NCBI GenBank assembly: GCA_000934665.2
Contig: KZ538572.1
Coordinates: 1-60,968, forward strand
DNA: 60,968 bases
Reading direction: 5' to 3'
Source: Catajapyx aquilonaris
Lineage: Eukaryota
Positions 6,701-28,716 of the stretch are shown here, piece after piece. Under the pieces are notes generated by a model. That model saw only the letters and a program-made list of their open reading frames with translations. It did not search any database and was not told where the DNA came from. The position numbers were made by a program, and so were the translations under genes. How positions within the stretch are numbered: the first letter of the stretch is position 1; every line of letters begins with the position of its first letter.

Positions 6701-9700
6701 GTACAAAGGTTGCTCATGGGTTGGACCGTGAGGTGTGAGCTTAATTGTTTGGAATACTCTTGGGTGGCGGGAGGCAGGGCCGGAGAGAGGGTGACCAGGG
6801 TGGCGGGCCTGACTTTCAGACGGGCAAGCACTTCCATCGGACCTCACTGCTCATCAAGGCCTTCAACCACAAGTTCCGACTGGATTTGGAGCTCAACACG
6901 TGAGTGGCCCCTAAGCTCCTTCTCCACTGTCACCTTTGCACTTTCAAAGATGCCAACATGTGTCGCACGATTCGGGCGTTTGCGGCGTTAAAAAAGAGAG
7001 AACTAGGAATGACAGGCTTTGACTTTTTAGGTGGCTGGTGGTGGGGGGGATATGCATCAAGTTTTTAGTGAGAAATTGGAGGGTGTCGCGATGGTGTCAG
7101 CTGCAGATTTTTCCGAGGCATTTTTTCGCACCGAAATTTGAGAGAGAATCGTTTGGCATTTTGCAGCGATTGTCGTGGCGGCGCGTGTGAGATAAATATT
7201 TTAAACGCCTATCGGTTCGATGGTGCTGCCGTAGAGATCGATGTTAAATATAGAACAGGACCCCTCCAATTAACTCTGCCTTTTTGCTTGGAAAGGTCAC
7301 AGCTATTTTCTTTCTCGGGTCCAGAGCATTGGTAATGTAATTAGTTGTTATGGCGACGAATTTTCAACTCTTCTCAGGCACTTTTTTGCCATGGATACCG
7401 TACCTAGCAACAGCGTCCTTTTGGCGTCCTACTTTTTCTCGTCACCTACAGAAACTGCTGGGAAAATATGGTGCGACAAGCAATGTGAATTTTGGAGAAT
7501 GCAGCTCGTTACAACTTGAATTATCGGTAGTGGTTAGCGATTTTTGGGTATGAAGAGGTTTATTATTCAGCAGTTACTTTTACACAGATACAGATACTTG
7601 CAAACACACTTTAGCTCCATCCTCAATATATCAGCACAGCTCTGACACTATAGGCACATGATGACAAGCTTAGATTGTGCGTACAGTACAAGAACATGCG
7701 ACGTATACACACGCAACGTTTGAGTGAAGACACGTACTGTTATCATGTGTCAAACAGGCAACTTCTGGCGCCAAACCTGATGCAGAAACACTTCTTACCT
7801 GGAGGAGCGGAGCAGCTGTCCAAGCAAGAGATCGAGCACTGCTACTACCACGGGACAGTCAAAGACTATCCTGGAGCCACGGCTGCCTTCAGGACGTGCA
7901 GCGGAGTGTCAGGGGTCATTCACGTGGGCAACGAGACATTCATCATCCATCCCTTCTACGGAGGGGACCTGTCTCGCAAGCACCCCCACGTCATCTTTGA
8001 GGCTCGGTCTCGCATGAGGCAAGCCTGCGGAAACACGGGCAAGCTGGAGTGGGGCTTGAGGAATTACCGGAAGCAGAAGGCCTCCGGGGATAACCCAATG
8101 GCCCTTGACCTCACGTCCTCCTCGACCTTCGCCGCCTTACAAAAGAGGCGACGGCGGCGAAGGCGGGACGTCCGGGAGGTGACCAAGTACATCGAGACGG
8201 CGCTGGTGCTCGACAAAGCCATAGTTAGTACAATGTTCTGCTGCTGATGGAGGTGATGGGCATTGCGGTCATTTCCACGGCGCCTACATAACCGAATCCG
8301 TTTCGGAACAGTATCACTATATTATTTTGGTTGTTAAAGATCTAATTACCAACCCAAGCTGTTGATTATCTTTTATCATGTCAACAGGGCGAATGCGATT
8401 TGCACAAAACAAAATAACATGATAGTACAAACAACAATCCTTCTTGTAAACATGAAGTTGGATAATCAGCAGCCTGAATTGGCAATTCTCTCCTTAGCAA
8501 CTGAATAGTGAGCTGGTGTAGTGCTCAGAGTTAGTTTGGTTTCGAGGGCGCGGTGAAAATGTGACCACATTGTTCTACTTTTGCGGTATTAGTTCCGTTC
8601 TCATACAGTCATGCATAAAATATGGCCTCGGAGTAACTCATAATAGCAAAGTAACTTCCCTAAAGCTTCTTGCATTTTGATCAGGGCCAAACAAGAACCT
8701 GCTGGCTTTACTGCAATACAATGTGTTGAACTATGAGCCTGCACTGTTTGCACTTGCTGGGACTTCGTTAGGACTAAGTAATCAAGGCTGCCATATTCGT
8801 AAATGGTATGAAAATGTGAAATTTTAAATGACATTTGACTTACTAATGGTAAATGACTTGTTCAGTGTTGCCCTATATAGGCTATAGGAGCAACCATTTT
8901 AAACCTTAATAAACACCCTGATTATCATATATAGAGTCATCATCACTCACGGTAAAATTACCTTGTAGTTCAATATATCTGCTTCTGCTGGAATTTTTTC
9001 ATTGCAAAATATTTGTGGCAGTCTACAGCTTCACCTTAACCACTAAAAGAAGCACTAAAAGTGTCGCCTTGAGAGCAACACCAGAGTTGGTCTGGACCGA
9101 GAACACTGCACACAAATAAAGGGAAGTCCTTATTCAGGGCAAAATAGCCGTCGTTAGTCACACCCGGAAAGCTGTCCGTCATTCTCAGGGGGACACGTCG
9201 CTTTATCGGGCCGTTTCATCCTTTCAGTTTGAGAAGAGGACCGGAAGCACGAGGCTCCAAGTCGTTCACGACGCTATCCAGATCGCCAACATTGCCGATT
9301 TGGTGAGTTTTATACGGTTTTGCTTCTCGGCTGACTCACATTCCCACCCATGCCTCTCTCTCTTTCTCTCTTCTCCCTCATCCCACCCCTGTATTTTTTT
9401 TTCTATCCGACACGAATAGGGTGTAATGAGAACCGTGGGGATCACCGAGATAACAGTTCCGCCAGGAGCGGAAATTTAACGGTAGCTGTTGCGTCCTGCG
9501 ACAATTGCTTTTGTGCAAGTGGCAATCATATATAAGTACGAAATGCGGAGAGGCAGCAATTTCCCGCCTGGCAATTTCATCTTGCGGAAATCTTAATGCC
9601 GTGCAAATGATTATGAAAGGGCCGTGCATTTCAGACTCTGCGGGACAAAATCTGAAATCCGTTTAAAGTCACGCGAGAAAAAGGCAATTTCATTCTGCAT

Positions 9701-12700
9701 GACGCCAAGCTCGCGCTGGGTTCCCGCAAATAACTTGCACCGTAAACTGCCCATTACAAGCTTAGTTCACTCGGGACTCGGGTTTAATTTTGCATAGCCT
9801 TCGTCATGCTTAAACTGACCCAGCTGTCTAAAAATTCATTGGGGGAGATTTAGAGAGCGATATTGAATCAGGGCAAGTTATGATCCGCTGCGTGATGTAA
9901 GCCACAGTAATGCCATCATCGTTAGACGTCAGTTGCTTTACTCCACGAGCTGCGCCATATCTGGCTCAGAATAGAAATCCTCCCAAATGGCTGATTTCAG
10001 CCTGGGATAAGTCGCAGTAGGCCTAATAGGCGGCAGGGGAGATCACTGAGCAATTTTCCAGCGCATTTGATCAGCGCTGATATTTTGGTATGGGTGTAAA
10101 CTCATTATGGAGGAAATGCAAGAGTGTTTGATTGTAATAAAAGTCAATTCAAATCATTACTATTGGACAAAGTGACGGAATTAATTGGTGTCAATAGCAG
10201 CTGGCACAGTCTAAAGCTTCTCAAACTGCAACTTGGCTGGTCTATTTATACAAACTAAGCAATTTATTCTAATGACTGCAATCATGATTTTCTGAATGCC
10301 AGATGTTGATGAGATTAATATGAGCAACAGGGTCTCCGCAGTTACCCCCATCTAATTATACAGTATGAATTAAAGTTAGCTTTTTGAATAGTACATTGTG
10401 AAAGGGCTTTTGACTGGCGTCTGACAACAGGTGAAATTAATCACTTTGTCTCACGGTGCTTTAACTCTTTACATTTTTAAAGACATACAGGGTATGTTCG
10501 GAATCGTTTCAGCGCAGCATGGCTTACCCTAAGACCAAATTGTTTCATATAATTTCGGAATTGCTTAATTGCGGTGGCAATTAAGTTTTGATTCTAGCAT
10601 TGGCGATATAGTGACGATCTTGCAGGCAGAGTATACTATTAATGTGATATGCAGGATATTGTCACATCACATATAAATCTGAAGAGTTTCTGAGGTTTTT
10701 ACATTTCCCCCCAAAGTACTGTCGTTATAGCGTTGTTCTGCTACCTTCAAACCCACTCATGTTCTGAAATCGCTTTGTGTACATCACGCAGTACTTCCGC
10801 ACGCTGAACACGCGCGTGTCGGTGGTGTACGTGGAGACGTGGCAGCGGGAGAACCAGACGCCTGTGGACAAGAGCCTGGATGTGTCGCGAGCCCTGCTCA
10901 ACTTCAACGACTACACGTCCCGTAAGCTCTACAAGGTGGACAAGGACACCACGCAGCTGCTCAGCGGAGAGAGCTTCATGGGCGGGGAGAGCGGGATGGC
11001 CGTACCGGACACGGTCTGCACGGCCAAGTCGGTCGGGGTCAGCGTGGACCTCAACGTGTACGAGCCTCACCTGGTGGCCGGTACCATGGCGCACATGATC
11101 GGACACAACCTGGGGATGAGCCACGACGACGGACGGGAGGAGTGTCACTGCCAGGACTGGCACGGGTGCATCATGGCACAGAACATCGTGGGCCTCGACT
11201 CGGTGCAGCCGTACAAGTTCTCGGAGTGCAGCCTCTCCGATTACATTGACTCGCTGCGGATCGGACATGGGATCTGCCTGTTTAATCGTCCAAATGAGGT
11301 TCAGGTGCGTTTTTTCCCCCTATTTTTGCTCAAATGGGGGTGGATTCATTTCCGAACTTAATCCTGGACGCCACAAACAGGCTTTGGCGATTTCCAGCTT
11401 TCCTATCGGACTGAGTTCCAGGTTGTTTTTTTGTTGTATTTATTAACGGGATTCTGCGGTTTTCAATCCGATGATCACCTATGAAGATTTCCATGCCAAT
11501 CTTGACAGCAATTTTGGCATTAAGCGACCATTTTGGGCACACTTAGATGTAGGCTAATCCATGCAGTCCCGGGGGAAATGCAATCTGCAGCCATTTCACT
11601 TACAATTATTGCTGAACGATCTACTCAGATCTCTACATTTCGTATGATTATGAATGGAAGTAACATGTTTTTCATGCATGGCAACTATAGGTGAAACACT
11701 ATAGTATAAATAATTGGGCTGTTATTACGTAGTATGCAGTCACCATACCGCGTTCACATAGAAGCTTCGTATAAAATCATAATTAATTGTACGCTCAGAT
11801 TTTCCCAAATTAGATCACTGGAACTGTACAGGGTATGGCTTGTAGAGCTTCCTCTAAATTTCAGGGATGCTTCAGAGTTCCTTGACTCGGTGTTATTGCG
11901 CGAATAGGTAGGAGCAAAGGAAGTCGCGTAATATTTCGCTCAGGGCCAATACGCAACGAGAAATTCCATGCAATAACTCCAGCCAGATTGACACTGCATT
12001 CCGCAAGTACCCAAATCCTACAGTTTACCTAGCAAAGTTGAGAATTTGCATTGTTTTGTTATCCTGGCTGCTAGTTAACCATCGCGCCTCTCTTGTTCAC
12101 CGCAATGCCTATAGAGCAGGCGTGTTTGTGGCATCAACAAAAAGGGTCGCTGGTCTTGTATCCTCAGGTGATAGACAAGTCGTGCGGCAACGGCGTGGTG
12201 GAAGAAGGCGAAGAGTGCGACTGTGGGACCATCGAGGAGTGTCACCAGTCGGACCCTTGCTGCGACCCCATCACCTGCAAGCTGCGGGTTGAGGCCGAGT
12301 GCGCTTCGGGGCCATGCTGCGACGATTGCCGACTGCGGCCCCGGGGCTTCCCCTGCCGGGAGGCGGCCAACGAGTGCGACCTGGGCGAGACCTGCACCGG
12401 GGTGACCGGCCAGTGTCCGATGGACGTCTACCAAAAGAACGGCAACGCGTGCGGAGGAGGACGGGGATACTGCTTCAACGGGGTGTGTCCCACGCTGGAC
12501 AATCAGTGCCAACAGATCTGGGGGTACGGCGGGGTGGCGGCCGACCGGCAGTGCTTCCAGCAGTTCAACTCCAAGGGGTACGTCAGCGGACACTGCGGAA
12601 CCGATAGCAACGGAAACTACGTCAAGTGCGATCCGGAGAACGTTATGTGCGGGTCGTTGCAGTGCCAAATGGGCTTTCGGCAGCCGATCGTGGCCGGCAT

Positions 12701-15700
12701 GGATGAGATGTTCTCACGGACTATCATCTCCATCAAGGGAAAGGAGTTCGAGTGCAAGTGCGTGTCTGCCTTTTTAGGTGTCAAGCTTCGGTAGCTCACT
12801 CAGGCTTCTACTTCGCAGGGCCACAAGCGGAACTCTGGCGCATAGCGAGATTCCGGACATGGGCTTGGTGCGGGACGGCACACCCTGCGGCGACAGCCTG
12901 GTAAGTTTGCCAGGAACACTAATACTGTACCAACTAGGTCGGTATACACACAACACGGCAGGGGAACTTTTTTTCTGGAGTGCTGAGAGGGTGTTAGATC
13001 TGCCACCGTACAGTACACATGAATGTCAAGAATTTGTTTGTTTACTGCATTTACTGACTCATTGAAGTCACATCCAGGGCAAATAATGCTGCGGAATATT
13101 TATAGGGGAGAGCCAACAGACGCGTGACCCTGACATTTGTGTGGTGGGGATGGATATTTTAAAGCTCCAGTAAAAATACCTCGGTTATACTGTTGGTTTG
13201 GAGCACCTGGGGAAAAGGGATATCCTAATCTGGGTTTGTACTACAGTGCATACAGTGCAGACAGACATCGCCTTCTATTAACAGAGATGGCAAGCATTTG
13301 GACTTTTAGACATATCAACAGCATTAGCTGTCATTGTGTCTAATGAAAGTAGTCTCATCTTCAGTTCAGGCCCTTTTTCGTAATGAATTTCGACGAAACT
13401 GCGAAAGGCCGCTGATGACCTTTTGGTGACGGTCTGATTGCTATAGATGTGTTCGTTCCCGCTATATTCATCATTCCACCCGATGGACCTTTAAAAATTG
13501 TTGCTCACTGAGATTATGACATGATCCTAGCCTATAATTCCGATAATGCACTCGCACTCCATGCCACTGCAGCCTATGCCCAAACAATAATTTTCTGCTT
13601 TCTCACATAGATATGTATCAACCAAACCTGCGTGAGCATATTTCCGTACATGGACCCGGGTAAATGCCCATCCAACAATGTGGCCCTTGATTGCTCGGGT
13701 CACGGAATGTGCTCCAACATCAACACGTGCCACTGCGACGGGGGCTGGGGCTCGGGGGATTGCTCCGAGGTGACCAATACCAGCTTCCATCATCACGGCC
13801 TGCCTGGGGTCACTCCACTGCCGCCCACCCCCATCGACGAGCAGGAGGACAAGCCCACCGAATCGCCTTACCTCATCAATGCCACCAAGACTTCTTCCTC
13901 GGGTCAGTTTCATTGAAAGCAGTTCCTTCACTTGATATCACTTACTACTGTATTGTTATGAATTGTACATGGCAACATTGGCAGACTGACAATCCTTTTC
14001 GTCATTCACTAGTTCAAATCAATGGGCGATGGTACTTTGAGGTTGTTCCGAATATGCAACAGCAATACTTCGACGAGAGTGAGTTAAGCATTTCAAGGAG
14101 AGGGCTAACAAACAGTTTCAAGCACCGTCCAATTTACAGCACGTTCAGTTCCTTATGATAAACTTTGAAAGAAAGGATGCAGTTCTTCAGCAAGTTGCAA
14201 TATTAGCTATCATATCACATACCCATTTTAAGGAGCCGTTTCTTGCGAAACTACCAGCGGTCTATTGCTCAAAATTAGTCGATCTGACAATATCGAGAAA
14301 TACTTGAAATTATAAAAATACCGAACATATTTTAGATGACCTTGTGCTTTACATTTTTTCTGAAACGGGCTGATTTTCCAACAGGTTTGTTCCCATGAAT
14401 TACCAACAATTTTTCTAAGGAGAAAATAACTGGCAACATTTCTTAGTAAAACAGCCTCTGGAAACTGGGAATGTAATAAATCATTTTATGCAAATTTTAC
14501 ATGTCCAAACGAGCAACCAGTTACAAAAAAAGGAACTTCGAGTGTTTCAGTAAAGAGCCGGCATATTTTCTGCAGTGCCCTTTGGCAGAATCGAATTGTT
14601 TTCCCTCTGATGGTGCCAGAGGACTCGCATTGCTTACTTAGGGCACTTGAACATCGTTTCACTTATGACGCACCAACTTGCTGAAGGAGTGAACTTCCTC
14701 TTAATTCGACGATGCGGAACAACTGGTTTTTGTATACACCAAATAACGTTCGCCCCCTAACCTTAGCTAATGAGAATTGACAGCACTAAGCTAACACTTG
14801 ACTATACTTGACCACTGCAGTAGTTGCACAAGGTCGATAAAGAGAGAGCTAAATCCGACTAATCCAATCCCCCCCTACATAGTATGTTGGTGTTAGTTGC
14901 AGTGTTTCTCAGCAACTAATGTTGTGTTAAGCTATTAAGGTAGGAGGAAGTCGGAAGGCGGGCTGGACAGGAGAGAGTGAATTTCCCCTTACAGTTCGCA
15001 ACGCAGACCATCTCAGCACGCTGTCCATGGTTTTTATCCTGGTGGGGGTGGTCAAGGGCGTCTTCATATGTTTCGCGCTCATGGCCGTGTGCTACAGGTA
15101 CCCTCGCTGCCCCCACCTTTTCTCTCTTTATACTTGCCTCCTTTTATTCTCTTTCTCTCGTCTCGCTCTCTTTCTCTGTACGTGGTGCCGCTGTTGGTGG
15201 TGCTGATGGCCGGTGGGGCTGGTGCTCACGACTGATGACTGACTGACTGGTTGACTGACTGACATGTCGCTAGCTGTGTTATTCCCCCTTTCTTGTTGCC
15301 CTCCCCCACCAAAGAGAGGGGGGTGGGGCCCTTACGCTCGTTCTGTCTTTCTTGTTCTTCCCCTTCCATCTTTCTCACAAATCTTACCACGCCATGGTTG
15401 GGACCATATGCCGCCCTCGCTTGAGCATGGGGATCACTGTACCAAATGAGAAGTGTATGCCCCCAACGAAAACGCTAGCCAAGTCATTCTTGAGTTAATC
15501 TTGTGTACAGTACAGTACGACATTTTCTTTCTTTATTGGGGGGCAGAAACTTCCTCGTTGAACCTAACAGTTATGCTCTACTACAAATAGACAAACTAAT
15601 AATAACCTGCATGGGCTAGATCCGGTGCTCATGAGAGGTGCGATGTGTTTGTTATACGAGTACACCTATAGAGTAGCGAAGTGTACAGTACAGTACATGG

Positions 15701-18700
15701 CATAGTCATTCATGTCAAAGGGTGTCCCGGCATGGCTTGGTGGATTGTGGAGAGGGATGAGTTCATCCCAGTGTGTGTACCGTACAGTGCCATACAACGA
15801 ACTGTCTTGAGAGCGCCAGACATGGGGAAAGAGAGTTTTTCTCCATGAAAAGAATCAGCAGCCCGCCTTCCCGCACTCCCCTCCAGACACCTGATGATAC
15901 CCAGCCTCAAACCTAACTAGTCACGTGTGTGTGTGGTGTGTGTCTCTCTCTTTCTCTTTTGGAATCGTCTGGCTGTGGATCACTCGGAATGACGATGCAG
16001 TGAGGCAACTAGGATCCAACCGCGTCTTGTTGGTGGTGGTGCTCGTTTCCGTGGTTGCGGGGGTGTTCATAGTGTTTGCTCTCATGGCGCTCTGCTACAG
16101 GTCAGTTGGGCCGTCGACCCGCCTCCTCTTCTACCCCGTCCTATACCTCTGGCATGATGAATCTATCTGGTCTCTCTTTTCTCTTTGGGCCTACTGCCTC
16201 TGTCCGGGCCAGCACGTGTGTTGCTTCTACTGCCACCCTGCATGGACACCTACTCGTTCACGTGACAGACGCTACTAGCTGTGTGCTACATGTCACCTTT
16301 TTTTTAACGTAATTGTAGCGTGTTCAAAACTAATGGGTTTTTGGTCGGCGGCATTTTTATCATGGGATTCCCTAACGGAAAAATGTGTCAGAGGCGTACA
16401 AAATATCGTTACATTACTCCGCTCACTAACTATCTTATACTGCATTGCAACTTAGCATATCTCACTACTGTACCGTACTTTATTACTATAGAGTGTTGAG
16501 TAGCACTGTACTTTAGTGTAACTGTACTTGCAGTTAGTTCTAATAATACAGCTTGCATGCAGGTGTATCTATCAATGCAGTCAAGTTAAGCCTTAGGATG
16601 CAAACAATGCCGCCTATTTAAAAGTCTATTTTTTGGATCTCTAAGAATATAATTATATTTAATCAGGGCAACCCTTCTCCAACTGTTCTGCACTGTTTTC
16701 AAAGTACATCACATCAAACTCTTGAGCAGTACAATTTCGTAGATGTAAATAGTAGCCTAGATTTGAATGGCAAGGTAGGCGTGATGGGCGGAGTATATAC
16801 TGTAGAGTAGAGTAGAGTTGGAGAGTGGTTGTGTGGGTTAAGGAAACAATTTTAAACAAACAGTGTGAGTTCGTGGGTCAGACTTTGACTTGTGGCCTAG
16901 GAGGAGTACCGTGCCAAAATACGAGCCGCCATTTGGGAAGAAACCCCTGAGCAAGAAGAAGGTCCCCATGGGATCGGCAGAAGAAGCGGCCGCGGCTCTA
17001 GAAGGTGCCAACCGCATCATCACTTTTGGCTCCATGCCGTCCTACAGGTATAGTCAGAGGTAAGTTCTCGGCCGCCGCTTTCTCCACCCTGCTTGCCACA
17101 CTGTACTCACTGTAATCATCTCATAGAGAGCATAAGCTGCAACAGTTGAAGAGGATGGGGGGGATGAGCGGAATGGGCAGCATCGGCGGAGGTGCAGGGT
17201 CTGCAAGCGAAGAAGAAGCGGTGCAGTCGGGGGAGGAGGAGAGCGTGTCCTTCATCGACCTAGCCCCTAACAATCTGTCCAAGCTCCCAGAGAAGGGCAT
17301 CCTGAAGAAGCCGCCATTCTTCGAGTCCCGCGACGACGCTGCCGACGCTCTCTCGCAGTCCGACAACAACCTGGAGGATGGCATGATGGGCGGTGCTGGA
17401 GGGGCCGGCGGCGGAGGAAGTGCTCTTAGCGAAGTGGAGCGAACACTCAAGAGCCTCAATGGCTATCACGAGGACATCCTCGAGGCCCTCCGATCCGCCG
17501 CATCCCATCGTGGGGCAGCAGGTCTTGGAGGTATAATCGCACTCACACTCTTCAACACATATCTGAGCACTCATGTCATGTTCAATTCCAGGCGCTGCTG
17601 GAGTGGCGGCTCTTACCGAAGAGCTGCGAAAGTCCCTCTCGGACGGTTACCCGGAGTATTCTTCGGAGTTTCCACTTCTGGGCAGCCAGGAAAAGCTCGG
17701 AGGGGGAAGCGGCGCTGGAGGGATGCGGTCGTCGATGGGCCTCGGTGGCAGCGGGATTTTTGGAGGCAGCAGCAGCGGCGCGGGTATGGGAAGCCTGGCA
17801 GGTTTAGGAGGAGGTCTTGCAGGGTTAGGGGGCGGTGGAAGCGGAGGTGGGGACTCAGCTGAAGAAGATTCGATGCCCCCCTGCGGTCCCATCCGGATCA
17901 GAAACCTGGAGGACCTCATCAGGCAGCTTGAACATCACTCTGGAAGGCACATGAGCCCTTCTGGGTCCGAAGATATCCGGATGTCAGAGACGGAAGCGGA
18001 TCGACATTACCGCTTAGATTCTTCGTCCGCACAGGGGTAAGTTTTTGGGTTCGTTGCGCCAAAAGGAGCTAGCAGTTCACGACACGAACATGCAGATTCC
18101 ACAGAGACGAAGAACCGGCGAGGTTTGTGTACGGAAGGTACAGACATCCACCAGCGGCAGGGGCGCCCGGGGGAGGGGGAGGAGGGCCGGGGGGAGGAGG
18201 GGGTCCGGATGATTTGTCCAAGAGGCTGGGAGGGACAGCTTCGGGGACGTCGTCGGCTTCCTCGTATCACACCCACCACCATCCTCAGAGTCACGCCCAT
18301 TCCCATCACCACCACCACCATGAAGCCATCTACGCAACAGCTGCTGATCCTGACCGAGACAGAGACACTGCTGATTCTGAGAGGTAGGCAACTTTCTGAT
18401 GCCCTTCTCTTTTGCTCTTGCTCTCTCTCTTTCTTCCCACTCCCTCTATATGCCTGTCGCCTCTATAGAGTTAAATATAGTTAGTTACAAAGAAAAAAAA
18501 AACAGAGGCCGATCTCTCCGACCCAACTTATCTCGCCCCCAACTATTCAGTAATGCATTTGAGCCAGCTATTTGAAAAGAGTGTGAGAGAGGAAAAAAAA
18601 AAATCCAACTCGGAGGTTCACTGCAGAAAGTCATTTGTGTGGTGCAAATTGCATATTATGAAGTAATGAGTTATTGGAGAGTAATGAAGTCAAGGCGTAT

Positions 18701-19353
18701 AACAGTGAGCCTTTCGTGTGCAGCGGCTCATGCAGTAGTAAGACCCGCTTTGAGCGAATGGCCACATTGTGTGCCCCCAAGTGCCTCGACCACACAGGCA
18801 CTTGTTTGTTGCAAAGTAGTTAGACAGAACAATAGTTGGGGGTGGGGGGAGAGGGGGAGAGTTTCGGCCCGTGGTCCTCCCGTTGCCTAGCGACGAGTTC
18901 GCGCAGGCGCAGCACATGGTCCGCTCGGCCAGCGAGGAGGCACTTCCGGTGACGCTCAAGCGGGACCCTCGGGGCGGCGTCGGCAGCAGCGGCCTCGGTT
19001 CCCCAGCAGGCGTCGGCAGCGGTAGTGGCGGCCATGGCGGCGTCTCTCCTTCGGGGCTCCTTTTCCCTTCCCCGCCCTCGGAGGACTCGTACCCAGAGAC
19101 AGGCCCCTGCGCAGCAACAGCACCTCCACAACCACCACCATCACAGCCCGGCGCCCCTTCAGGCCTTGGTGGTGCCATCGCAGCAGCAGCCGCCGCAGCA
19201 GCAGCAGCAGCTTCCGCAGCCGCTTCAGCAGTTGCTGCAGCAGGCATCGGCTCCAATAACAACCATAGCTCGACCGGCGAGGACTCGCAAGACGCCGAGG
19301 AGGCGCTGCTACACTCTATCCCGACGCAAAGATATCCCGAGTACAAGCACTGA
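3787..19353 (+). CDS. mmd: ADAM family disintegrin/metalloprotease-like protein, mind-meld/UNC-71 type (non-catalytic), 5' partial, about 1400 codons in window
   Basis: Frame-consistent GT-AG exons: 3787-3837, 3911-4059, 5211-5264, 6820-6899, 7758-8223, 9228-9302, 10792-11304, 12168-12757, 12819-12900, 13611-13902, [14995-15097 or 16001-16100], 16901-17047, 17127-17530, 17592-18036, 18096-18383, 18891-19353. Prodomain (HCYYHG), furin site [10 protein letters not shown], reprolysin domain with [12 protein letters not shown], disintegrin ([18 protein letters not shown] loop), Cys-rich and EGF domains, TM, long tail ending YPEYKH. Confidence 0.93.
4668..4738. repeat. Imperfect (CT)n microsatellite in ADAM intron
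   Basis: Visible ctctctct/tctctttctc run. Confidence 0.8.
4769..5096. mobile_element. Probable degenerate MITE
   Basis: Inverted termini GAGGGTACGCTCGAACA (4769-4785) and TGTTCGAGCTTACCCCC (5080-5096). Confidence 0.45.
6352..6400. repeat. Interrupted (CAG)n trinucleotide repeat
   Basis: gcagcagcagcagcagcag...ccagcagcag. Confidence 0.75.
8261..8572. mobile_element. Degenerate foldback MITE in ADAM intron
   Basis: Imperfect inverted termini cattgcggtcatttccacggcgcc / ggcgcggtgaaaatgtgaccacattg, plus internal inverted arms gctgttgattatc / gataatcagcagc. Confidence 0.55.
14995..15097 (+). CDS. mmd: ADAM alternative transmembrane exon A ([35 protein letters not shown])
   Basis: ttacag acceptor, AG/gtaccc donor, 103 nt, phase 1 to 2, matching the flanking exons; paralogous to exon B. 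Confidence 0.88.
16001..16100 (+). CDS. mmd: ADAM alternative transmembrane exon B ([34 protein letters not shown])
   Basis: tgcag acceptor, AG/gtcagt donor, 100 nt, phase 1 to 2; shares GVFIxFALMAxCYR with exon A. Confidence 0.88.
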
Positions 19354-21379
19354 CCCACCTCCACACTCGCACCACCGACGCCTCCGACGCCTCACCTTGC
19401 CCCTACCACCTTTACCTCCGCCACTGCCAACCCCGTTCCCGCCTTCCCCGCTCGACACCTGATGATGAGCAGCATTCTACTCATTCATTATTTCACTCAA
19501 AGTCAAAATGTTCTCTATTATTCTACCAAGTGGCAGAAGGATGCGGAGTCCAACTTATTCCAGAAGGTGCCTCGGAAATGGGGACTGATCCAATACTTTT
19601 TTGCTAATTTAGCGGAACAGGCTACGTGACAATCAGGAAGGAGTAACTTCTTTTTTTATTTTGTATTCTGGGGGCAAGGGGGATGCGGGGAGCTGGTCTC
19701 GAAATATTCATGATTTATTTAAAAATATCTTGTTATTTGCACGTTGCATTCGTCCCCATTTTAAGTCGCCCTCTGAAAAGTCTGACTCCGAGCACCTCAT
19801 AGACAAGACTAGGACCCCCCTCTCTGAATGAATTGGTATCAACTCCACGTGAGGTTCTATAGTTGTATGTTTTTTTACACTAGTATTCCTGTATGGGGAA
19901 AAAGGTTTAAAGAGCGTCAAATATTTGTCACCCTTTTGATTGTCACAACGAAACGAAAAGAACAGATGGACAAAAAAAATAGAGATACGAAGCATCGAAA
20001 ATATTGAAGAGACGGTTTACATAATGAATGAGAATAATATTGTGGATTTAGAATTTTATAGAACATTTTTACCAGGGCTAAAAGCTCCTCTCATCCATCC
20101 TACTATATAGTATACCGGTACTCGTTGACTCACCCACGTGGCTGTTAGAAATACTTCAAAGCTCACCATTTTGTCACCAGGAAGTGTCCCTTTTACCCTA
20201 ACTCGGCATATTTTATACTCGTGGGCACACCCAGTGACTTTTAACTGCAAAAAATGTAGCTACCTCACACCAATACGTAAACGTGCATTAAGAGCAAAAG
20301 ATGTGTGTGTGGATCTTTGAAGCCCCAAAAAATAATAGGTTGCCATGCAAAGTGTGGCCTACAACACTAATCCCGAGTTAGGAACCTGGCCCTTCATTTC
20401 GCACGAGGCGCTTTTCTGTCTTCAGTCATAAATGCCAAAAATCATGCTCAACACTGCCTCCAGAAATGAATCGCCATTTTGAGTTGGGTGAGCTGTTGAC
20501 AAGATGGCGACCCCTTTGGAAGGCTCATGGCAGCCACCCAGATGGTGATGGGGAAAAAAAAGTGTAGCGTTTCTTCAAAAAAAGAACAATGCTGTTTAGT
20601 GGCAACGGAAGGAGCCGCTGAGACAAAGGTTGACAAATTCAGAGACCAGGACGTGTGAGTGTTTCTTTTCTGCACATCTGGAGAGGAGACAATCTTTATA
20701 GACGAGTCGAGCGGACGTTTCTTGATAGCGTGTGACAAGGAGATTTCAATTGGGGCCCTGTTCAGTATAATAGGTCATTTCGTAATAATACTAGAAATGT
20801 AGTTGGAGGGCAGCAGAGAAGGGTTGTTACTTGTTTCGCAAGAAAGACATAAAAAAAGAAGAAGAAAAGAGAACCCCCCTTTCTCTTACTCCCTGTGCGT
20901 AGGATGGATCCTGAAGTCGAGCATAAATGCGCCCTAGCCAAAAAAAAATACCACCCATTTATACCCTTCTTTACTCCTTGTTCCGCGCCTCCCATCCCTC
21001 TCGAAACGAGAGAAAAAAAAATACCTTCAGTCCTAACCGAAAACAGTACTTATTACGATCCCGGACTGTGTCGTTTGTTGTTGTTTGTTGACTCGTAGAG
21101 GACTTTTTGAGGGCCGGCGAGCCTTGGTAATGGGCCCGTGGACTTTGCTCAACGCCCTGAGGTTGGTCCTCTTCCTTTGTTCCCCAAAACTCCCAAAAAT
21201 ACTCCCCTTTCCACACACCCGTAATTTCCCTTAACTCCCAGAAATTACGTCACCGAAAAAAATGAGAGAAATAAACCAAAAAAAATATAGTCGAACAGGA
21301 GAAAATGAACAACTGACTAAGGCTCCCGGATCAGCCGGCGGCCACCACAATCAGTGTGTTTTTATCCCGTTCGTTTTTT

Positions 21380-25954: not shown

Positions 25955-28716
25955 ATGGTGAAGGAGGAGGAAGAGGAAGAGGAAGCTGGGGACGAAGCCA
26001 TGGAGCTGCAGCCCTTTCAACATCAGGTGGGTGGACATACCAGGCTGCTTCAGTGGGACCGAGCCACCGTGTGTAAGCCACTGGTGGGCAGGGAGGCTGC
26101 TTTTTACCTGCGGGCACCACCTGACCTTCGTGCCCTGGCCCCGGGCTACAAGGGGTTGGCCAGGATCCAGGCGGACAAGTCCGGAAGGCCGGCCAAGCTC
26201 AGCACACTATCACGACCGGCGCTGGACCATGCTACCACATCGGGGCAATGTGAGTTGAGACACCCTGTAGGTGCACTTCCAGCACTGTTTGTCAAATGCA
26301 AAAGGTTCGAAACACCTGTCCAGTGTTGTTGTTTATGTTGACTTCTCCGTGGTGCTGATGGTTGTGTAGCACCGCAGGATACCATATATTAAAAAATAGA
26401 TACACGTGTACGTACAAGGGGATCGCCTATCACCACTTCTAATTGAAGTGCGCGATTACTGCATATGAAGTATTTGATTGTGTGTGACAAAATGTACACT
26501 TGATTACCCCACTTGGCGTTATTGCCGTGATTTTATGGAGAAAACAATTTTTAAAATGCATTTGCGTGCTGTAAGTTCGCATGCTTGTTAAATAAGAAAG
26601 GTGCCGTGACAGTGTGACGTTGGTAAATTCATGTGGGTGGGGGGTTTTCGACCTTCTGCTAAAGTTCAGAAGCTGTCAGCAAGTCACCATGGTAACTTAT
26701 GGGAAATGCTTCGGGGGAATCCTGGCAGGCAGTATAGGCAGGATCGCTTTTCCAGCAAAATGTCGAAAATCCATTATTTTACACATGACGCAATGCAATG
26801 GCTGGTACGGGCAGATCAAATTTTGCTCAATATTTGGTTACGATTACTCACAAAAATCAACTCGAGTTTTCGAAAGCAGTTATCTAATGTGGAATGATGC
26901 GCACACTGAACCAACAAATAACTGTTATAGCCTATACAGTTTACATATGGTGAAGATTAGAATTTAACTGGCACCACTCATTGCAAGTTTAGCATTAAAA
27001 CTGGATTTGAACTATGTGCTATCTCTAGGTGCGATATAGTAGCTATAGAGGGAAATGTCTTTGTTTTTGTTGAACAATAGAGGTGGTTGACACCAACTGA
27101 TTGCTAGCCACCAACAAAAAGCCGAAGGTGGTCGTGGCCAAATCTCCGTGAATCACCAATTCGATAACCCCCGTGCTCCATTAGCAAAGTCGTAACCAGG
27201 TTGTTAGCCTTTGACTGTTTTGTTCATATAACGTATTTTGCGACTTCCCCTTGTTTGTCCGGTATTCTCATCTGCAGCCCCAGCCTTCCTGATAACGTTG
27301 TTTACTCCGGATAGTGGCAGTCGCCTCACGCATTTCAAAAGAGGTAACGATGCGAAATTCTGCACATTTCTATAACCCGAATTCTTGGCAGGAGACGAGA
27401 ATTTCGTCCCCAAAAAGCGTGGGAAGAATCTGCTTTTCATTCATAAATGCTACCAGAAATAGGTGTCGTGCCATGGAAGGTGCGTCATTCCAGGTTAAGA
27501 AATTGTACTCCGCTTCACCATTATCTGACAAAACGACCTCCAGTTTCCCGGGTGTAACTTCAGCTTCCAAGGTATAATGACAAATATCCTTCTTAGCCAA
27601 TACACAACGTCACATGCAAAGACCACAGTCATAGGCAGGAAACAGCCTTGTATTTGCGTCTTAACATCGCACTCAAGAGAGATTAGCTTATCTCATTTTT
27701 TATGGTCAGGTTCGTCTGTAAGATTTGTTGGAATTTTGTTTTCGCTGCGTTGAGCCAAACGCATTTGTCACAGAATTGGCGCCATATGTGCCGTCTGGAG
27801 GACATCTTAAAATTAATCAGGGATTATGAAGCCATACGCCTTCGTTTATGTAACCGGTTCACGCGCCTTAATCTGATTTTCTACGTCAGGTTTCATCCTC
27901 CTGGAGAATGTGGCTGCACGATTCAGACGTCCATGCGTCCTAGATCTGAAAATGGGTCGTCGTCAGCATAGTGACGATGCCCCGGCCGACAAGCGGGCTA
28001 GGCAACAAGCAAAGTGTGCCAATTCGACATCGGCGACACTTGGGGTTCGGCTGTGTGGTATGCGGGTCTTCCGACCGTCGGTGGCTCCAGATGTGGAGGA
28101 TGACGATGAGGAAGACGACGATGGGGATGCCAGATGGCTGGAGCGTGACAAGTACGTGGGTCGTCGACTGGATGCGGAGGGATTCCGTCGGGTCATGCGG
28201 CTCTTCTTCCACGACGGTGCTCACTTGAGAAGCGCGGTGGTCAGGATGGTCCTCAGAAGACTTGAAACATTGAGGGCTGTCATCCAGAAGCAGGAATCGT
28301 GCCGTTTTTACTCTTGGTTCGTTTGATAGCTTATCTGAGGTTGCTTCAAAGGGTGAAGCAAGTGGACCTAATGATTGCCCTTTGGTTACAGCTCATTGCT
28401 GATTGTGTACGAGGGGAGCGTGCGGGCGGGAGAAGAGGTGGAGGAGGAGGAGGAAGAAGAGACGGAGGAGGAGGAAGAGGCGTCTGAAGCATCGGAGGCG
28501 TCCGAAGGTGAGTCGGAGGCATCGGGGGCATCTGAAGAGATCCGGAAAGAGCGGTACCCTGGGGCGGAGGTTCGCCTGATCGATTTTGCTAACGCAACGG
28601 TGGGAGAGGAGGCCAAGGCCCAGTCTGCCCTGCACTCGGGGCCTGATTCCGGTCTGCTCCTTGGGCTGGACAGCCTCCAGCGCATCCTGGAATGTCTTCT
28701 GGCCCGTGACACATAG
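25955..28716 (+). CDS. IP6K: Inositol hexakisphosphate kinase, about 348 aa
   Basis: Exons 25955-26249, 27890-28316, 28392-28716. Motifs [29 protein letters not shown] (PxxxDxKxG), [27 protein letters not shown]. Confidence 0.93.

Follow-up and report, generated by a model that had tools for sequence, protein, structure and literature searches.

Two membrane-anchor exons, probably spliced in a mutually exclusive manner, in a pseudo-ADAM gene of Catajapyx aquilonaris

The stretch analyzed here, hereafter the window, comprises the 60,968 nucleotides (nt) of contig KZ538572.1 of Catajapyx aquilonaris (assembly GCA_000934665.2). A multi-exon gene was found on the + strand of this eukaryotic, arthropod-like stretch and, as judged from its sequence, it is probably an ortholog of mind-meld (mmd) of insects, which in arthropods corresponds to ADAM11/22/23 of vertebrates. 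Two of its exons, designated A and B, both encode a transmembrane (TM) anchor, and they very probably form a conserved, mutually exclusive pair by which one ectodomain and one tail are delivered on two different anchors. The features relevant for this reading are as follows.

10768-11361, + strand: Reprolysin domain (PF01421; E-value 3.2e-40)
11092-11127, + strand: degenerate zinc-site motif in the reprolysin-like exon, with the catalytic Glu of HExxH changed to Met (HMIGH)
12180-12758, + strand: coding stretch of the Disintegrin (1.3e-20) and ADAM cysteine-rich (ADAM_CR; 1.6e-24) domains, used as query of the protein search
13611-13902, + strand: EGF-like/stalk exon, the last constitutive exon before the choice of anchor, phase 0 to 1, with acceptor AG at 13609-13610 and donor GTCAGT at 13903
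13903-14994, + strand: intron upstream of exon A
14995-15097, + strand: exon A, 103 nt, phase 1 to 2, type-A TM anchor with Lys and Cys within the helix
15098-16000, + strand: intron separating exons A and B, 903 nt, with GT..AG ends
16001-16100, + strand: exon B, 100 nt, phase 1 to 2, type-B TM anchor, nearest to the single anchor of chelicerates
16101-16900, + strand: intron downstream of exon B, removed in the RNA joint 16100>16901
16901-17047, + strand: first common cytoplasmic exon (ending ...SMPSY), phase 2 at both ends, its start taken from the RNA joint

With regard to domain architecture, successive coding pieces on the + strand matched the Pfam families Pep_M12B_propep, Reprolysin, Disintegrin and ADAM_CR, in this order, followed by a weak EGF-like match. 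This fits the domain order of an ADAM protein, i.e., propeptide, reprolysin, disintegrin, cysteine-rich and (weak) EGF-like domains, one TM segment (exons A/B) and a tail, the latter being long and of low complexity in this gene. The EGF_2 match to 13611-13902 was weak (1.9e-3) and lay under the curated Pfam cut-off of the family. The zinc-site motif has retained its three His and its Asp, whereas Met takes the place of the catalytic Glu; this replacement indicates that the gene product is a pseudo-protease. A protein search with the disintegrin/cysteine-rich exon yielded 319 proteins at E ≤ 1e-20 (483 candidates), the best 120 of which were examined. All of these 120 were from arthropods, with a top identity of 75%, which means that the species of the window is itself missing from that collection; their source names were mostly ADAM11, ADAM22, unc-71, mmd and mind-meld, the rest being other ADAM-type, 'uncharacterized' or 'hypothetical' proteins. 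A further search with residues 690-800 of protein P0050 gave 2 hits (35 candidates), and one with the EGF-like exon, at near lengths, gave none. HMIGH was present in 118 of the 120 orthologs and the remaining two lacked the region, so that the Glu-to-Met exchange was without exception. Since the motif occurs here and in all 118 motif-bearing orthologs, the label 'pseudo-ADAM' given to the gene in the initial annotation is correct, in line also with the Pfam domains.

At the end of the exon upstream of the pair, a codon is split after its first base, and at the ends of exons A and B a codon is split after its second base. The sequence before exon A is ...CCCCTTACAG and its donor reads GTACCC; for exon B, the corresponding borders are ...GATGCAG and GTCAGT, and the acceptor of the exon starting at 16901 reads ...GGCCTAG. 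The best 21-residue Kyte-Doolittle means, 2.67 for exon A and 3.21 for exon B, indicate that each of them encodes a membrane-spanning helix. Neither 103 nor 100 nt is a multiple of three, and therefore the inclusion of both exons or of neither destroys the reading frame: joint inclusion (203 nt) causes a frameshift and a premature stop just past the 16901 exon, and skipping of both leads to a stop 16 codons past the junction. With A alone or B alone, the frame stays open through the common cytoplasmic exons into conserved tail motifs, for around 200 codons beyond the anchor, after which the tail exon model, from which one intron is missing, meets a stop. The exon coordinates, lengths, phases and borders (13902 and 16901) proposed in the initial annotation were thus exact by reading and translation, the flanking borders also by RNA joints, and the frame shift it had predicted for both or neither was reproduced in the two translations.

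The end of the first common cytoplasmic exon at 17047 and the start of the next exon at 17127 were deduced from GT/AG sites and from the ortholog match near ...YREHK.... Two tandem candidate donors, 12 nt apart, follow the 16901 exon (GTATAG at 17048 and GTAAGT at 17060). In orthologs, a cassette (SRG.SQRVLFR) is optionally present in the place of 17048-17126; it was not seen in the window.

RNA evidence in this organism came from one public run of unrecorded kind (run X1), consisting of contigs only (32 million letters; 0.26 of sampled words). Contigs of this run matched 7500-20000 with at least 99% identity and revealed five GT..AG joints.

11300>12164 as listed, with 11304>12168 as its GT..AG reading
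13902>16001
16100>16901
18036>18096, by which a 59-nt intron is removed
18383>18907

These five joints indicate that run X1 contains spliced transcripts, and 13902>16001 together with 16100>16901, both of which had been predicted from the DNA, indicate that an mRNA with exon B and without exon A is made here. A further run X1 contig of 251 nt (14617-14867) was located wholly within the intron upstream of exon A and had a depth of 6.4, compared to values of about 3 in neighboring exon contigs; it could represent pre-mRNA, a repeat or an unannotated RNA. A search of 13900-16900 against Rfam, with E-values of up to 1, gave no match.

Exons A and B were identical at 16 of 32 aligned residues (50%) and share the ending ...FALMA(V/L)CY. 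At the nucleotide level, a repeat finder reported a direct repeat of 52 nt (75% identity, spacing of 1003 nt) which spans the 3' halves of both exons. In addition, in a local alignment against 15098-20000, exon A matched best at 16051-16100, within exon B, with a score of 43 that was reached by none of 300 exon A shuffles (mean 20.6, standard deviation 2.4, maximum 29). The paralogy of A and B assumed in the initial annotation was therefore confirmed at both levels. No third copy of exon A was found, as no score above 26 was obtained elsewhere in the window on either strand, a value below the shuffle maximum. At 16270-16298, the repeat finder suggested one more copy of the 3' end of the exon; this candidate, which coincides with the best hit (16277) of the insert search described below, scored 22, below the shuffle range, and was discarded. 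With regard to the features by which Hatje et al. 2017 delimit clusters of mutually exclusive exons, as given in the accessible text of that paper (PMC5740500), exons A and B are alike in length and homologous, they fit in phase and splice sites, and their joining does not keep the frame.

Both anchor classes were also recovered in relatives. Among the 120 orthologs, the best of the 319 proteins, anchors were mostly of type B, and a minority carried type A in the same place. Exon A was 85% identical to type A of the mayfly Ephemera, including 28 of 28 of the last residues, 82% identical to that of the louse Polyplax and 76% identical to that of Lygus; values for the A types of bug, beetle, ant, sawfly, mosquito and locust ranged from 64 to 76%, and the diverged Daphnia A showed 33%. 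Exon B was 62-69% identical to B types of insects, crabs and Daphnia and 59% identical to that of Artemia, versus 38-53% with insect A types. The following isoform sets contain both classes.

Linepithema humile: 1 A and 6 B isoforms (A/B example, X6 versus X4)
Solenopsis invicta: 4 A (X6, X7, X8 and X14) and 15 B isoforms
Lygus hesperus: 8 A and 4 B among 12 transcriptome-derived proteins
Culex: 1 A and 3 B proteins, and 3 further fragments without the region
Daphnia: 1 diverged A (P0003), and B in P0002 and P0004-P0006

Type B was present in 14 of 15 crab isoforms, the other (P0285) being a gene model with a weak A-like stretch (score 51) that was left out of the count, and in the three Artemia proteins (3/3). 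In total, 326 proteins were compared, 173 of which had a recognizable anchor, with 37 scoring as A and 136 as B; this scored set includes a few nematode-like single anchors, on either side. An A-then-B tandem was seen in 0 of the 173 TM-bearing proteins. The presence of both classes in insects and in Daphnia indicates that the duplication predates the branchiopod/insect split and that both copies are under protein-level constraint. Annotated arthropod mmd or 'ADAM11/22/unc-71-like' isoforms belong to the same gene as judged by domain order, the HMIGH motif and best reciprocal similarity, and their two anchor classes are found, like here, after the EGF-like stalk and before ...RKST.PKY(D/E)P. 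The initial annotation had proposed one ectodomain and tail with two anchors and had surmised that such isoforms may already exist in insect annotations. The former agrees with the frame arithmetic and with ortholog isoforms that bear either anchor and never both, and the latter turned out to be the case not only for insects, but also for Daphnia annotations and the Lygus transcriptome. The pair occurs in insects as well as in branchiopod crustaceans, public isoform annotations already contain it, and it is no new kind of element.

Two of the compared sequences were peculiar. The sole protein with two anchors (P0121; 1729 amino acids, from a non-arthropod source) has the whole disintegrin-to-anchor block repeated in its gene model, which is probably an assembly or annotation artifact. 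P0109 (Logan-derived; 908 amino acids) runs from the EGF-like exon through around 70 codons of what looks like intron sequence and on into exon A, which is out of frame there. This unspliced or genomic contig shows that, in one relative, exon A is located shortly after the EGF-like exon.

If the two anchors behave differently, the polar or charged mid-helix residue of A and a juxtamembrane insert found, in other species, only with B are likely to be what sets them apart. In distinct A-scoring anchors, the mid-helix position was occupied by Lys in 8 of 17, including the exon A described here, by Thr in ants and by Asn in the locust, while Gly or Ala was found at the same position in 39 of 42 B-like anchors. 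Moreover, 11 of the 17 distinct A-scoring anchors contain a Cys where B has mostly Val. As for the insert, 107 B-type proteins from Daphnia, Artemia, crabs and insects have 12-13 additional residues (SVVVHKNFSLCL) directly after the B anchor; of the B-type proteins devoid of it, 23 continue straight into a basic RK/RR-type sequence and 6 were unclassified. After the A anchor, the insert was present in 0 of 37 proteins. While annotated arthropod mmd isoforms mostly combine the B anchor with this insert, exon B of the window lacks it, and a search for the B-specific insert in 16101-16900 gave a best score of 22 at 16277, a score reached by 189 of 500 shuffles, i.e., the insert was not detectable there. 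The window keeps GTCAGT after exon B. As the insert starts with the residues that a GTCAGT donor would encode, the sequence comparison suggests that other species may obtain it by the use of a second, more distal donor for exon B.

In the mechanism that we propose, the TM-encoding exon was duplicated in tandem and copies A and B would be spliced mutually exclusively. By frame, the only productive mRNAs are A-only and B-only; the incompatible frames would hence be the minimum safeguard of exclusivity, out-of-frame mRNAs presumably being lost by nonsense-mediated decay, and competing RNA structures might be a further contributor. U2/U12 incompatibility was discarded because every border is of the GT..AG kind and none has the conserved donor motif of U12 introns, and steric hindrance was discarded because the 903-nt intron between A and B is too long for it. 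By their splice sites, both exons look like regulated exons: the pyrimidine tract of exon A is good and its donor is weak, and exon B has a poor tract beside the AG, a CT-rich tract around 40-60 nt upstream with no AG in between, and a better donor. Two further sequence likenesses were noticed in the downstream introns. Some 175 nt past the end of each exon (15259-15280 and 16262-16289), the motif CTAGCTGTGT occurs with a preceding GAC.., but is too short to count. Each exon is also followed, at a distance of around 65-90 nt, by a CT-rich tract. Statistically, neither likeness can be told apart from chance.

Several observations weigh against a functional, mutually exclusive pair or limit its support. 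No run X1 contig covers exon A (14995-15097), although a single small, contig-only run is no evidence of silence, and the donor of exon A, GTACCC, is off consensus at +4 to +6. The joints 15097>16001 and 13902>16901 were not found among the run X1 contigs, where rare A+B or skipped forms could escape. The absence of the former had been expected in the initial annotation, and this expectation held weakly, as contigs are all that the run offers. The mid-helix Lys of type A is not invariant in the above set of 17 distinct A-scoring anchors, which includes nematode-like sequences. A shared regulatory element did not emerge from the introns either: the best local score between the downstream introns (30, in the CT-rich tract) was reached by 2 of 200 shuffles and was not significant, and that between the upstream introns (20) was reached by 177 of 200 shuffles. 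No convincing docking/selector-type or long-range pairing was detected in these introns of a single genome, where the nine inverted repeats were short and unexceptional.

Taken at face value, the transcript data would fit exon A being a silent relic in this organism, intact and no longer spliced in, so that the gene makes a B-anchored protein only. The only joint over exon A in run X1 skips it (13902>16001), its donor is weak, and the B-specific insert, another conserved alternative piece, has been lost or has diverged beyond detection in this lineage. We nevertheless consider such a relic quite improbable. Exon A has kept an open frame, intact AG and GT borders and its phase, its last 28 residues equal those of mayfly type A, and 82% of the exon is shared with louse A, which would be unexpected for 103 nt free of constraint; furthermore, the one small run of contigs (32 million letters) cannot show that exon A is absent from transcripts. 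A decaying duplicate, never spliced in and not conserved, had also been named in the initial annotation as the case that would speak against the pair. Its conservation part is contradicted by the 28/28 match with mayfly A; as to its splicing part, run X1 holds no exon A contig. From its conservation, we infer that exon A is used in this organism too.

A different role, which we regard as highly improbable, would be that of a regulatory switch in the main, where mRNAs with joint inclusion or skipping are degraded, or where the skipped form yields a short-tailed soluble ectodomain, so that the pair tunes the dose or sheds a secreted form. Both the A+B and the double-skip patterns do give premature stops, the double-skipped form ends 16 codons past the EGF-like exon, ahead of any membrane anchor, and, according to the accessible text on the human catalog, most frame-incompatible exclusive clusters also have joining reads (PMC5740500). 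In contrast, neither joint appears in run X1 (weak, as contigs only), none of 173 TM-bearing relatives contains both anchors, and the separate conservation of the A and B classes in insects and Daphnia argues for protein-level selection on both helices. That A and B owe their likeness to convergence of unrelated hydrophobic exons, or to chance between TM segments, with no duplication, is vanishingly improbable. It is true that TM helices are alike in composition and that protein-level similarity alone may mislead; however, the nucleotide similarity is concentrated in a 50-nt block (43 versus a shuffle maximum of 29; 0/300), and both exons have equal phase and position, near-equal lengths and the FALMA(V/L)CY end in common.

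The exclusive pair being retained, its origin can be approached through the single anchors of other lineages. Horseshoe crabs had one B-like anchor in 8 of 8 isoforms (5 from Limulus and 3 from Tachypleus; the ninth cluster member was a fragment without anchor), and pseudoscorpion, mite, sea spider and nemertean had one anchor each, as counted in protein models for the chelicerates and the nemertean. These single anchors contain the ...VS.VGGVFIFFAL... core of type B. Because the single chelicerate anchors are B-like, type B looks ancestral and type A looks like the derived copy in these comparisons.

A comparable pair exists in humans. The catalog of human mutually exclusive exons contains, in its accessible parts, an ADAM23 pair (cluster 1788) of two 91-nt 'frame 1-2' exons with hydrophobic, TM-like peptides, one of them annotated as constitutive and the other found in an intron, with brain versus testis as tissue labels (PMC5740500). 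No entry for mmd was present in the 10 supplementary files of this catalog as far as these were accessible, and the same source, in the text available, describes the convergent or divergent origin of clusters common to fly and human as generally unresolved (PMC5740500). Similar to A/B, the ADAM23 pair belongs to the catalytically inactive ADAM11/22/23 family, has phase 1-2 and encodes TM-like peptides, and its position matches that of A/B, the human position being taken from the nature of the peptides and not from a gene map. The human exons are equal in length (91 nt each). However, while both human exons end in GGTGWG, both arthropod exons end in FALMA(V/L)CY, i.e., each pair resembles itself. 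This self-resemblance, together with the single anchor of chelicerates, favors, but does not prove, independent duplications as the origin of the arthropod and ADAM23 pairs; concerted evolution of an old bilaterian pair is possible too. Sun et al. reportedly named, in 2004, the ADAM23 isoforms alpha and beta, and a gamma form is said to lack the anchor.

With regard to function, our tentative view, held with less than even confidence and built on analogy, is that the two anchors may confer a different in-membrane behavior on the same ectodomain and tail, such as neuronal sorting or other membrane partners. Exons 17.1 and 17.2 of Dscam1 encode alternative TM/juxtamembrane segments and, according to the accessible part of the source, endogenous TM1 is restricted to dendrites and TM2 is also found in axons (PMC7685093). 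Like A/B, these are exclusive TM and juxtamembrane exons of a single-pass protein with a common ectodomain and remaining tail; unlike A/B, they belong to an unrelated protein family, in which a sorting consequence has been demonstrated that for mmd would follow by analogy. The comparison with the Dscam1 TM pair drawn in the initial annotation is thus fair as an analogy of design, to the extent covered by the accessible text (PMC7685093). In Drosophila, Mmd is described in the available text as a synaptic single-pass protein complexed with GluCl-alpha, which binds mostly one Mmd form, and as organizing synapses and channel clusters without proteolysis (PMC10592863). The same non-proteolytic role is ascribed to vertebrate ADAM22/23 in the accessible portion of another source (PMC9997507). 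In our literature search, we found no paper describing alternative anchors in mmd, and ADAM23 reviews contained no mention of anchor isoforms. If one gene puts the same ectodomain on two conserved anchors, the anchor itself carries information, i.e., on sorting or on the choice of partner, and isoform-blind tagging or knock-outs of mmd would average two proteins. The finding is of moderate relevance to synapse biology and to the question of how mutually exclusive exons evolve, and the human ADAM23 parallel offers a concrete comparison across phyla.

A more far-reaching and rather doubtful scenario is that the TM exon was duplicated independently in the insect/branchiopod lineage and in vertebrates, each time as an exclusive pair of the same phase, and that the derived A helix, with its polar or charged residue (Lys here) and its Cys in mid-membrane, selects another partner or compartment than the ancestral, Gly-rich B helix. 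If true, this would suggest that this inactive-ADAM family of synaptic organizers has repeatedly required a choice between two membrane anchors for the same ectodomain, and partners of the type-A helix may be ligand- or voltage-gated channel complexes, on the model of Mmd with GluCl-alpha and of ADAM22/23 with Kv1 and the AMPA receptor.

Downstream of this gene, the window contains a second gene on the + strand (27877-28716). Two of its coding pieces gave matches to PF03770, the inositol polyphosphate kinase family, at 1.8e-38 and 6e-11, and an acidic, Glu-rich stretch lies between these pieces.

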